The notes below the pieces were generated by a model. The model did not search any database. It was not told the DNA's origin and saw only the letters and a list, made by a program, of their open reading frames with translations. From the NCBI RefSeq assembly GCF_056712565.1, contig NZ_CM160072.1: DNA of 64,000 nucleotides. The stretch is one strand, 5' to 3'. Position 1 is the stretch's first letter. The number at the start of each line of letters is the position of its first letter. This document shows positions 10,659 through 25,986 of this stretch, piece by piece. Position numbers and translations under genes: made by a program.

Positions 10659-11057
10659 CAGGCTAAGAGGGGCAGGACACCCAATAAAACTACGCTTCGT
10701 TGACATATATCAAGTTCAATTGTAGCACGTTAACAGTTTGATGAAATGATCGTATCTAAATGCTAGCTTTCGTCACATTATTTTAATAATCCAACTAGTT
10801 GCTTCATACAACTAATAAACGTGGTGAATCCAATTATCGAGATTTATTTTTTATAAAATTATCCTAAGTAAACAGAAGGATATGTAGCATTTTTTAACAA
10901 TTCAATCGTTAGTACAGTCAGGAAATAGTTTAGCTTTTTTTAAGCTAAGCAAAGGGCTTTTCCTGCGACTTACGTTAAGAATTTGTAAATTCGCAACGCG
11001 TAATAAGTTGACAATGATCACCCTGTTCGCGGTTATTTGGTCAAGAAGAGTGGCAAT

Positions 11058-11744
11058 ATGCGTATAACGATTATTCTGGTTGCACCCGCCAGAGCAGAAA
11101 ATATTGGGGCAGCGGCGCGGGCAATGAAAACGATGGGTTTTAGCGAACTGCGGATTGTTGATAGTCAGGCACACTTGGAGCCAGTCGCCCGTTGGGTCGC
11201 ACATGGATCTGGTGATATTATTGATAATATTAAAGTTTTCAAGACACTAGCTGAATCGTTACACGATGTCGATTTCACTGTTGCCACCACTGCGCGCAGT
11301 CGGGCGAAATATCATTACTACGCTACGCCAGTAGAACTGGTGCCGCTGTTAGAGGAAAAATCTTCATGGATGAGCCATGCCGCTCTGGTGTTTGGTCGCG
11401 AAGATTCCGGGCTGACTAACGAAGAGTTAGCGTTGGCTGACGTTCTTACTGGTGTGCCGATGGTGGCGGATTATCCTTCGCTCAATCTGGGGCAGGCAGT
11501 GATGGTCTATTGCTATCAATTAGCAACATTAATACAACAACCGGCGAAAAGTGACACAACGGCAGACCAACATCAACTGCAAGCTTTACGCGAACGAGCC
11601 ATGACATTGCTGACGACTCTGGCAGTGGCAGATGACATAAAACTGGTCGACTGGTTACAACAACGCCTGGGGCTTTTAGAGCAACGAGACACGGCAATGT
11701 TGCACCGTTTGCTGCATGATATTGAAAAAAATATCACCAAATAA
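11058..11744 (+). CDS. lasT: tRNA/rRNA methyltransferase LasT (SpoU/TrmH family)
   Basis: ORF MRITIILVAPARAENIGAAARAMKTMGF... matches LasT/YjtD; start set at the internal Met rather than the ORF-track start. Confidence 0.85.
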   Translation: MRITIILVAPARAENIGAAARAMKTMGFSELRIVDSQAHLEPVARWVAHGSGDIIDNIKVFKTLAESLHDVDFTVATTARSRAKYHYYATPVELVPLLEEKSSWMSHAALVFGREDSGLTNEELALADVLTGVPMVADYPSLNLGQAVMVYCYQLATLIQQPAKSDTTADQHQLQALRERAMTLLTTLAVADDIKLVDWLQQRLGLLEQRDTAMLHRLLHDIEKNITK

Positions 11745-21593: not shown

Positions 21594-21694
21594 CTGCCTG
21601 ATGCGCTACGCTTATCAGGCCTACGATCTTCTTGCAATATATTGAATTTGCACGATTTTGTAGGCCGGATAAGGCGTTCACGCCGCATCCGGCA
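21594..21694. repeat. REP/BIME cluster between mog and satP
   Basis: CTGCCTGATGCGCTACGCTTATCAGGCCTAC and GTAGGCCGGATAAGGCGTTCACGCCGCATCCGGCA units in opposite orientation. Confidence 0.7.
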
Positions 21695-21751
21695 TAAACA
21701 AAGCGCACGTTGTTAACAATCTTATCCCTTCGAGCGGGGGGAGCTTAACAA

Positions 21752-22318: not shown

Positions 22319-22466
22319 AATTCCTCAAAAATCATCATCGAATGAATGGTGAAATAATTTCCCTGAATAACTGTAGTGTTTTCAGGGCGCGGCATAATAA
22401 TCAGCCAGTGGGGCAGTGTCTACGATCTTTTGAGGGGAAAATGAAAATTTTCCCCGGTTTCCGGTA

Positions 22467-23180
22467 TCAGACCTGAGTGGCGCTAACCATCCGGCGCAGG
22501 CAGGCGATTTGCAGTACGGCTGGAATTGTCACGCGATAGGCACTGCCGCTGACCGCTTTAACCCCATTTAATGCTGCGCCCACAGGGCCTCCCAGACCCG
22601 CGCCGCGCAGCAAACCATGCCCAAGCACGCTCATTGCTGCGTGGGTGCGTAAAATGCGGGTCAATTGGCTGGAAAGCAAATGCGACACACCTTTTGCCAA
22701 TAATTTGTCTTTCATCAGCAGCGGCAGCAGCTCTTCCAGCTCATTCACCCTGGCATCGACCGCGTGCAGAAACTCCTGCTTATGTTCCTCGTCCATTTTC
22801 TTCCAGGTATTACGCAGAAATTGTTCCAGTAACTGTTGCTCAATTTCAAACGTAGACATCTCTTTGTCGGCTTTCAGCTTCAATCGCTTTGAAACATCGA
22901 GCAAAATGGCGCGATACAATTTACCGTGTCCGCGCAGTTTGTTGGCGATACTATCGCCACCAAAATGCTGTAATTCTCCGGCAATCAGCTGCCAGTTGCG
23001 GCGGTGTCGCTCGGGATGTCCTTCCATCGATTTAAACAGTTCGTTGCGCATCAGTACGCTGGAGAGGCGAGTTTTGCCTTTTTCATTATGGGTGAGCAGC
23101 CGGGCGAAATTTGCCAACTGTTCCTCACTACAATGCTGGAGAAAATCCAGATCTGAATCATTCAGGTAATTAACATTCAT
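22467..23180 (-). CDS. yaaW: UPF0174 family protein YaaW
   Basis: 237-aa ORF MNVNYLNDSDLDFLQHCSEEQLANFARLL...; matches YaaW. Confidence 0.85.
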   Translation of the reverse strand: MNVNYLNDSDLDFLQHCSEEQLANFARLLTHNEKGKTRLSSVLMRNELFKSMEGHPERHRRNWQLIAGELQHFGGDSIANKLRGHGKLYRAILLDVSKRLKLKADKEMSTFEIEQQLLEQFLRNTWKKMDEEHKQEFLHAVDARVNELEELLPLLMKDKLLAKGVSHLLSSQLTRILRTHAAMSVLGHGLLRGAGLGGPVGAALNGVKAVSGSAYRVTIPAVLQIACLRRMVSATQV

Positions 23181-23205
23181 TTTTTGTGGTTTCTATATTC
23201 TGGCG

Positions 23206-23610
23206 TTAGTCGTCGCCGATAATTTTCAGCGTGGCCATATCCGATGAGTTCACTGTATGACCGGAAAAGGTGATTTTTGAGACGCAGCGTTTGTTGTCGT
23301 TATCGCTGTTAATGTTGATCCAGTCAGTGGTTTGCTCTTCTTTTATTTCTGAAGGAATATTCAGGGTCTGACTGGCGCTTCGGGTGGCTTTGAAATAAAT
23401 CGATGCACCGCTTAACTGCAAATCGCCATGGTCGGCTGAGAGTTGTATGCGTTTAACAATGCGACAAACAGGAAGTTTCAGCGCCAGATCGTTGGTTTCG
23501 TTTCGCGGCATTGCAATGACGCCGAGGATTTTATGGTCGTTTGCCTGCGCCGTGCAGCACAGCATCAGGCTAATCGCCAGGCTGGCGGAAATCGTAATAA
23601 CGGATTTCAT
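23206..23610 (-). CDS. yaaI: DUF2541 periplasmic protein YaaI
   Basis: 134-aa ORF with signal peptide [23 protein letters not shown]. Confidence 0.85.
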
Positions 23611-23862: not shown

Positions 23863-23981
23863 AGTCAACCGCAGTGAGTGAGTCTGCAAAAAAATGAAAT
23901 TGGGCAGTTGAAACCAGACGTTTCGCCCCTATTACAGACTCACAACCACATGATGACCGAATATATAGTGGAGACGTTTAG

Positions 23982-25898
23982 ATGGGTAAAATAATTGGTA
24001 TCGACCTGGGTACTACCAACTCTTGTGTAGCGATTATGGATGGCACCACTCCTCGTGTACTGGAGAACGCCGAAGGCGATCGCACCACGCCTTCTATCAT
24101 TGCCTATACCCAGGATGGTGAAACTCTGGTTGGTCAGCCGGCTAAACGTCAGGCAGTGACGAACCCGCAAAACACCCTGTTTGCGATTAAACGCCTGATT
24201 GGCCGCCGCTTCCAGGACGAAGAAGTACAGCGTGATGTTTCCATCATGCCGTTCAAAATTATTGCTGCTGATAACGGCGACGCATGGGTCGAAGTTAAAG
24301 GCCAGAAAATGGCACCGCCGCAGATCTCTGCTGAAGTGCTGAAAAAAATGAAGAAAACCGCTGAAGATTACCTGGGTGAACCGGTAACTGAAGCTGTTAT
24401 TACCGTACCGGCATACTTTAACGATGCTCAGCGTCAGGCAACCAAAGACGCAGGCCGTATCGCTGGTCTGGAAGTAAAACGTATCATCAACGAACCGACC
24501 GCAGCTGCGCTGGCTTACGGTCTGGACAAAGGTACTGGCAACCGTACTATCGCGGTTTATGACCTGGGTGGTGGTACTTTCGATATTTCCATTATCGAAA
24601 TCGACGAAGTTGACGGCGAAAAAACCTTCGAAGTTCTGGCAACCAACGGTGATACCCACCTGGGTGGTGAAGACTTCGACAGTCGTCTGATCAACTATCT
24701 GGTTGAAGAATTCAAGAAAGATCAGGGCATTGACCTGCGCAACGATCCGCTGGCAATGCAGCGCCTGAAAGAAGCGGCAGAAAAAGCGAAAATCGAACTG
24801 TCTTCCGCTCAGCAGACCGACGTTAACCTGCCGTACATCACTGCAGACGCGACCGGTCCGAAACACATGAACATCAAAGTGACTCGTGCGAAACTGGAAA
24901 GCCTGGTTGAAGATCTGGTAAACCGTTCCATTGAGCCGCTGAAAGTTGCACTGCAGGACGCTGGCCTGTCCGTATCTGATATCGACGACGTTATCCTCGT
25001 TGGTGGTCAGACTCGTATGCCAATGGTTCAGAAGAAAGTTGCTGAATTCTTTGGTAAAGAGCCGCGTAAAGATGTTAACCCGGACGAAGCTGTAGCCATC
25101 GGTGCTGCTGTTCAGGGTGGTGTTCTGACTGGTGACGTAAAAGACGTACTGCTGCTGGACGTTACCCCGCTGTCTCTGGGTATCGAAACCATGGGCGGTG
25201 TGATGACCACGCTGATCGCGAAAAACACCACTATCCCGACCAAGCACAGCCAGGTGTTCTCTACCGCTGAAGACAACCAGTCTGCGGTAACCATCCATGT
25301 GCTGCAGGGTGAACGTAAACGTGCGGCTGATAACAAATCTCTGGGTCAGTTCAACCTGGATGGTATCAACCCGGCACCGCGCGGCATGCCGCAGATCGAA
25401 GTTACCTTCGATATCGATGCTGACGGTATCCTGCACGTTTCCGCGAAAGACAAAAACAGCGGTAAAGAGCAGAAGATCACTATCAAGGCTTCTTCTGGTC
25501 TGAACGAAGATGAAATCCAGAAAATGGTACGCGACGCAGAAGCTAACGCCGAAGCTGACCGTAAGTTTGAAGAGCTGGTACAGACTCGCAACCAGGGCGA
25601 CCATCTGCTGCACAGCACCCGTAAGCAGGTTGAAGAAGCAGGCGACAAACTGCCGGCTGACGACAAAACTGCTATCGAGTCTGCGCTGACTGCACTGGAA
25701 ACTGCTCTGAAAGGTGAAGACAAAGCCGCTATCGAAGCGAAAATGCAGGAACTGGCACAGGTTTCCCAGAAACTGATGGAAATCGCCCAGCAGCAACATG
25801 CCCAGCAGCAGACTGCCGGTGCTGATGCTTCTGCAAACAACGCGAAAGATGACGATGTTGTCGACGCTGAATTTGAAGAAGTCAAAGACAAAAAATAA
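23982..25898 (+). CDS. dnaK: Molecular chaperone DnaK (Hsp70)
   Basis: 638-aa [24 protein letters not shown]... with Hsp70 signatures IDLGTTNS and DLGGGTFD. Confidence 0.99.
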
Positions 25899-25986
25899 TC
25901 GCCCTATAAACGGGTAATTATACTGACACGGGCGAAGGGGAATTTCCTCTCCGCCCGTGCATTCATCTAGGGGCAAATCAAAAAAG

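Follow-up and report, generated by a model that had tools for sequence, protein, structure and literature searches.

The closest described counterpart of the open frame examined here is mbiA (also htgA or htpY; b0012) of Escherichia coli K-12, which the MG1655 RefSeq record carries as an annotated CDS for the 'uncharacterized protein MbiA' at 10830..11315, opposite yaaW (b0011). In terms of origin, overprinting in the E. coli/Shigella lineage has been proposed to have given rise to htgA, with slower evolution of yaaW offered as an argument, although the same study describes the existence of htgA as controversial, its start codon as having been moved, its expression as not induced by sigma-32, and its frame as truncated by a nonsense mutation in one strain (Delaye 2008). 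This account agrees with the sequence-only reading of the present DNA, according to which the overlapping frame had once been annotated as a heat-shock-associated gene and was later questioned. In a later preprint, which cites Fellner 2014, mbiA/yaaW appears as one of a small number of overlapping gene pairs 'verified by demonstrating a phenotype'.

Two further groups of systems bear comparison. The antisense embedded genes of E. coli O157:H7 (nog1/citC, asa, pop/ompA, laoB and ano) are, like mbiA, fully embedded in an older gene and taxonomically restricted, and an overprinting origin has been claimed for them in papers that report ribosome profiling and phenotypes in their support; for the mbiA frame, in contrast, the selection test described below gave a neutral result. 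Excludons are divergent or convergent transcription units that overlap, and yaaW-mbiA has been listed as a divergent excludon in the MG1655 'excludome', its transcripts overlapping in no fewer than 50% of the 58 RNA-seq samples. In this pair, one unit is nested wholly within the other and the regulatory effect is putative.

The window studied here is a stretch of 64,000 nucleotides from contig NZ_CM160072.1 (assembly GCF_056712565.1). The frame that had been flagged occupies positions 22645..23169 of the plus strand and, in the ORF listing, has a GTG start, 174 codons and a TAA stop. As had been claimed, it lies wholly inside yaaW (22467..23180, minus strand, 237 amino acids). The surrounding open frame, measured from stop to stop, covers 22540-23169 (209 codons) and is bounded upstream by an in-frame TAG at 22537..22539, which derives from the YaaW Ala214-Tyr215 junction (GCC followed by TAT). 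The fourth codon of the flagged ORF, the ATG at 22654, corresponds to K-12 position 10830 and hence to the annotated mbiA start; calling ORFs from the first ATG, GTG or TTG simply adds the 3 codons upstream that begin with GTG 22645. From the K-12 start, mbiA in the window strain spans 22654..23169 (171 codons), and in an alignment its product is identical to K-12 MbiA at 158 of 161 residues (98%), with 3 amino acid differences. The K-12 stop, TGA, is replaced by TGG at 23137-23139, which makes the window ORF 10 codons longer. Locus (between satP and yaaI/dnaK), strand, frame and ATG are otherwise the same, and the gene order satP-yaaW-yaaI-dnaK is common to both strains. The differing stop is allelic variation at one mbiA locus, and the assignment to an htgA/mbiA-type frame in the sequence-only reading is borne out: the flagged ORF is the already-known E. 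coli mbiA/htgA/htpY locus, annotated and long debated.

An 851-nt query of this region found matches in 5,424 of 5,426 complete E. coli genomes, with 100% identity to SK1144 and others. None of the 12 PGAP records of E. coli that were inspected, from SK1144 and 11 diverse strains, annotates mbiA. Plasmid-labelled records account for three of the 5,424 satP-yaaW-yaaI matches, one being the 404-kb pMTY18781-1 (NZ_AP023206.1), which suggests chromosomal segments carried on megaplasmids or replicons that were mis-assigned.

The host gene itself encodes a protein of the JukA family with Ubiq_cyt_C_chap and DUF3944 domains, and it is under strong purifying selection. The match of YaaW to the PADLOC JukA model spans the whole protein (E = 3.8e-57), and JukA ('formerly YaaW') is described as the sensor of the Pseudomonas aeruginosa anti-jumbo-phage Juk system; yaaI (DUF2541), located 25 nt upstream of yaaW on the same strand and its partner in a possible Juk-like pair (22467-23610, minus strand), matched no PADLOC model. 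On every PGAP-annotated record listed for the locus, YaaW is named 'msyB: acidic protein MsyB'. The name can be traced to an end-to-end match of YaaW (520 bits) to NF007593 (PRK10236.1), an NCBIfam equivalog titled 'acidic protein MsyB'. YaaW is a basic protein (pI 9.5), called 'putative enzyme-specific chaperone YaaW' in K-12 RefSeq, and the model name looks wrong.

The product of the flagged frame had been described as rich in serine and cysteine, and it is: Ser accounts for 41 of 174 residues (23.6%) and Cys for 15 (8.6%), and the sequence contains the run SSGSSSSSS. The geometry of the overlap accounts for this composition. Judging from the coordinates, the third codon positions of the ORF and of yaaW coincide, while the first position of either frame faces the second position of the other, which is the 123/213 phase described for htgA/yaaW (Delaye 2008). 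Each antisense codon is thus the reverse complement of the third base of yaaW codon j plus the first two bases of codon j+1, and the YaaW amino acid sets the first two antisense bases. Specifically, GAN (Asp/Glu) becomes TCN (Ser), CTN (Leu) becomes AGN (Ser/Arg), and CAN (His/Gln) becomes TGN (Cys, Trp or stop). Because the third codon positions coincide, the amino acids of the ORF are set by selection on YaaW, whose residues 5-176 comprise 18% Leu, 10% Glu and 9% Lys; the serine run of the ORF is the mirror of YaaW NELEELLPLL. When YaaW was recoded synonymously, the expected Ser and Cys contents were 23.5% and 7.6%, against 24.0% and 8.8% observed. As this content matches that of recoded YaaW, the composition carries no independent information.

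The same phase governs where stops can occur, which is only at yaaW junctions of the form NNY followed by TAY or NNT followed by CAN. YaaW contains three Tyr residues, and most of its Gln and His residues are preceded by Glu, Lys, Gln or Trp, none of whose codons has T as its last base. The length of the open frame was compared with chance by resampling the synonymous codons of YaaW according to local codon usage. Recoded genes had 4.7 expected stops, against 3 observed, and a longest open stretch with a median of 108 codons; a stretch of at least 209 codons had P = 0.028 (1 in 36, the top 3%). Within a set of 41 neighbouring genes, no open stretch in this phase is longer than that of yaaW, the next being dnaK with 183, and in any phase an antisense open stretch of at least 173 codons is found in 9 of the 41, with dnaK open over 638 codons. 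The ORF is somewhat long for its phase, yet within what a genome yields by chance.

The antisense frame of dnaK is an instructive comparison, as both it and the yaaW frame are stop-free through the amino acid and codon content of the sense gene. A 678-aa ORF at 23940-25976 on the minus strand runs antisense across all of dnaK (23982-25898, plus strand), with no stop in 638 codons. It lies in the 1-3/2-2/3-1 phase, in which stops require the rare codons TTA, CTA and TCA, whereas the yaaW shadow lies in the phase with third positions paired (3-3), its stops depend on Tyr, His and Gln junctions and its opening would have needed a replacement in YaaW (Y73F, below). Long open antisense frames in the 1-3/2-2/3-1 phase are also found opposite ispH (316 codons), ileS (427), dnaJ (242) and tal (209).

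With respect to selection, the comparison of both frames across Escherichia that the sequence-only reading had proposed gave different results for the two: yaaW is strongly constrained and the ORF frame evolves at the neutral rate. The analysis used 16 alleles: 13 distinct alleles of E. coli, one from a divergent 'E. coli' (89% identity), and one each from Escherichia sp. E1V33 and E. albertii; species sampling was limited by a contig scan that gave only 11 loci. Every segregating mutation in the overlap was assigned a class for each of the two frames, with the full set of possible single-base changes as the reference and with transitions and transversions treated separately. Among yaaW-synonymous mutations in Escherichia, 27 alter the ORF protein against 23.6 expected, which corresponds to a maximum-likelihood omega of 1.23 (95% CI 0.75-1.95); values of 0.5 (chi2 = 12.2) and 0.2 (chi2 = 42.9) are rejected. 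The same calculation in clades in which the frame is broken gave 42 such mutations against 40.8 expected (omega 1.05, 0.71-1.52). On the yaaW-synonymous background, then, the 16 Escherichia alleles reveal no purifying selection on the ORF frame beyond that of yaaW itself. Constraint on yaaW was evident on either background (z = -3.5 and -13.7), and the pairwise dN/dS of yaaW within Escherichia is 0.016-0.02. These results, together with a composition that mirrors YaaW, uphold the statement that the frame is not separable from a chance frame kept open by constraints on yaaW.

Two other signals that might be taken as selection on the ORF were considered and rejected. A naive dN/dS calculation in the ORF frame yields low values (approximately 0.06-0.2), but Citrobacter alleles in which the frame is broken are equally low, and the naive value is for this reason an artefact of constraint on yaaW. 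The possibility that apparent purifying selection in this phase is a by-product of the overlapping gene has been raised previously (PMC4182739). The slower evolution of yaaW, as argued by Delaye (2008), was the other. In Escherichia the dN/dS of YaaW is indeed only about half that in Citrobacter, but the C-terminal 60 codons, which are not overlapped, show the reduction as well; the slowdown is gene-wide and so cannot be attributed to the ORF. Moreover, the dS of yaaW within Escherichia (0.60-1.01) is not below that of the flanking satP and yaaI (0.22-0.77). A single contrast runs in the opposite direction. Mutations affecting both proteins and those affecting YaaW only stand at 9:5 in Escherichia and 57:6 in the outgroups (Fisher p = 0.024), a deficit in the direction expected under constraint on the ORF. 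We consider this evidence weak, since the counts are small and the comparison is confounded, the YaaW-only class consisting of third-position and mostly conservative YaaW changes; against Citrobacter alone, the difference in ratio is not significant.

The distribution of stops suggests how the frame came to be open. Three species of Citrobacter, Salmonella diarizonae and UBA7338 have 3-6 stops within the ORF-equivalent region. One of these falls at ORF codon 104 (22963..22965, plus strand; AAA, Lys, in the window) and is obligate in Citrobacter, Salmonella and UBA7338, where it is dictated by YaaW His72-Tyr73 (CAT followed by TAC). In all Escherichia sampled, YaaW residues 72-73 are His-Phe, which removes the codon-104 stop. 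From this distribution, the one obligate internal stop would have been lost on the Escherichia stem when Tyr73 of YaaW was conservatively replaced by Phe, and third-position choices at approximately 7 facultative sites would have left some 210 codons open.

The downstream boundary of the frame varies within E. coli. Counts of stop alleles were obtained from 5,426 E. coli genomes with site-centred 55-mers and megablast seeding on the exact allele only. At codon 162 (23137..23139, plus strand), the TGG of the window occurs in 3,881 genomes and the K-12 mbiA stop, TGA, in 1,501, the difference being synonymous in yaaW (CTC/CTT); counted from the ATG, the product has 171 codons with TGG and 161 with TGA, and the flagged 174-codon version is therefore the commoner E. 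coli allele and the 161-codon K-12 version the rarer. At codon 146 (23089..23091, plus strand), TGG in the window, 248 of the 5,426 genomes carry TGA through a yaaW-synonymous ACC>ACT change, and E. albertii has acquired TGA at the same codon independently. The TAA that ends the window allele (23167..23169, plus strand) is effectively obligate, as it derives from YaaW Asn4-Tyr5 (AAY followed by TAY). Three ends thus segregate within the species (3,881, 1,501 and 248 genomes), and the ORF boundary is not conserved.

Stops are present at two of the three sites at which one yaaW-synonymous transition can create one (codons 146 and 162). The other five stop-creating yaaW-synonymous changes (4 transversions and 1 transition, codons 5-122) were found in none of the 5,426 genomes, in a search that used 25-nt flanks with N spacers and was calibrated with matched control sites, where variants were detected at no fewer than 2 of 22 transversion and 3 of 20 transition sites. 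By our own calculation, the probability of finding none of the five stops under neutrality is approximately 0.6, and the test is without power to show constraint. Codons 1-145 are open in all 16 Escherichia alleles, E. albertii included, and, within the reach of this search, in the 5,426 genomes; their openness in the 16 alleles likewise fits neutrality (P roughly 0.3 from the 16 alleles, by our own estimate).

At the level of the protein, the ORF product matched no Pfam, NCBIfam or PADLOC model, and a search of 5.8 billion proteins returned only one E. coli cluster, with no homologue outside the genus. Three weaker protein matches (P0002-P0004, 51-64% identity) that resembled distant homologues were rejected: they are mosaics, from metagenome assemblies in which this E. 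coli locus is frameshift-ridden or chimeric, with dnaK and satP fragmented on the same contig. An AlphaFold2 model from the single sequence without an alignment had a mean pLDDT of 29 and a pTM of 0.17, bearing in mind that single-sequence models are often poor. The codon adaptation index of the ORF, 0.565, falls short of every one of the 41 neighbouring genes, whose minimum is 0.608 and median 0.704, and lies inside the range of the same-phase antisense frames of those genes (0.465-0.576).

The ATG at 22654 is preceded at a distance of 7-11 nt by a weak to moderate Shine-Dalgarno-like GGGTG (22643..22647, plus strand), with an anti-SD duplex energy of -3.9 kcal/mol, compared with medians of -5.8 for the 41 real genes and -2.2 for all ATGs, while the GTG at 22645 has no such site (+1.3). 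Promoter scans found no sigma-70 consensus promoter upstream of the ORF on the plus strand, and under lenient settings only a weak extended -10-like element, TGaAATAAT, at 22350-22358. A sigma-32-type promoter (CTTGAAA-N13-15-CCCCATNT) had no match upstream of 22654, the sole nearby match being at 22669, inside the ORF; the same scan recovered dnaK P1 (23832) and P2 (23907) as positive controls. An Rfam scan identified no family within the yaaW region. According to the literature, RNA from both strands of yaaW-mbiA exists, and an intragenic htgA/yaaW promoter has been reported to be active in vitro. In the literature searched, we found no evidence for translation of the mbiA frame, and the experimental claims concerning it are second-hand.

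Several observations concern the surroundings of the pair. A perfect 8-bp hairpin (GGGGAAAA-TGAAAA-TTTTCCCC) is located at 22434-22455, in the spacer between satP and yaaW and immediately beyond the stop codon of yaaW; it has no T-run and so was not called by the terminator scan, and any plus-strand transcript starting in this spacer must cross it to reach the ORF. The mog-satP interval contains a match to the Rfam sRNA ES036/CssrF (21617-21659, minus strand; 50.6 bits, above the gathering score) and partial matches to naRNA4 (REP-like) on both strands at 21663-21731. Further along the window, according to the annotation of the matching strain, the segment 27986-31649, between mokC/dnaJ and nhaA, carries genes for OmpK and a sulfatase and a hypothetical gene, and the segment 34073-37513, between nhaR and rpsT, genes for a GH31 glycosidase and an MFS transporter. 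In K-12 these two places are occupied instead by IS186 and IS1, and the two gene sets look like strain-variable islets.

Taken together, we regard it as probable that the ORF is a shadow of yaaW that drifts neutrally and is possibly pervasively transcribed or translated. The frame would be open, and would seem conserved, only through its phasing against a strongly constrained gene; since its opening it has drifted neutrally, with amino acid changes accumulating at the neutral rate and stops reappearing. Occasional translation from the weak site at ATG 22654 is plausible, given the published reports of transcripts from both strands, and any product would be a basic polypeptide rich in Ser and Cys, under no selection and probably without structure, which would rank as a proto-gene at most. 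The heat-shock phenotype described early on would then stem from disruption of yaaW or from neighbourhood effects near dnaK rather than from loss of MbiA. A very young and weakly selected gene could escape all of these tests, and such a gene, overprinted in the Escherichia ancestor and translated at a low level from ATG 22654, is the main competing explanation, one that we nonetheless hold to be unlikely. Its function would reside in the first 145 or so residues, with a dispensable C-terminus, and would serve a condition-dependent trait. Biofilm formation is such a trait, and is reportedly altered in translationally arrested mbiA mutants. The duplex energy at its ATG, transcription of both strands, the retained K-12 CDS, the top-3% open length, the open codons 1-145 and the deficit of mutations that alter both proteins all suit a young gene, as do the case made for overprinting and slower yaaW evolution (Delaye 2008) and the phenotype for the pair to which the preprint passage refers. 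Set against these are the absence of a fold and of homologues, the non-coding-like codon usage, and the fact that the study that made the case itself calls htgA controversial and not induced by sigma-32. In addition, omega is the same as in clades with a broken frame, E. coli carries three different ends, the dS of yaaW is undepressed and the slowdown of YaaW is not specific to the overlap. The open core that all Escherichia sampled share, E. albertii among them, is compatible with neutral retention in both the 16-allele and the 5,426-genome estimates, and the deficit of mutations changing both proteins relative to the outgroups is the confounded comparison discussed above. A bolder form of the same idea treats mbiA as a genuine de novo gene with a datable birth, opened on the Escherichia stem by the YaaW Tyr73-to-Phe replacement and a few synonymous changes, with codons 1-145 as its core, a free-running C-terminus and selection too weak or too conditional for approximately 100 substitutions to register; this we consider improbable.

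The functional entity may alternatively be the plus-strand RNA, with the ORF incidental. An excludon-type antisense transcript would in this case lower or gate the expression of yaaW (and of yaaI-yaaW) by transcriptional interference or cleavage of double-stranded RNA. Such a role is compatible with neutral evolution of the ORF protein and with phenotypes of mutations that change the RNA as well, and it draws on the listing of the pair in the excludome and on the promoter activity reported in vitro. However, antisense transcripts are pervasive and common in E. coli, and they are often noise. Furthermore, the weak extended -10 at 22350-22358 is the sole candidate in place of a consensus plus-strand promoter, the region contains no Rfam family, and the unreduced dS of yaaW leaves no extra constraint visible at the nucleotide level. 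Of the readings considered here, we hold a functional RNA to be the most doubtful. Drift of a frame in the shadow of yaaW remains our preferred explanation.

The htgA/mbiA locus is among the most cited examples of bacterial genes born by overprinting and is still a CDS in the K-12 reference. The present analysis supplies a list of the yaaW-synonymous stops, natural alleles with three different ends and the frame-opening Y73F change. Should the frame prove to be no more than a shadow of yaaW, caution would be warranted both in the use of htgA as an example and in the application of naive dN/dS to antisense genes in this phase.
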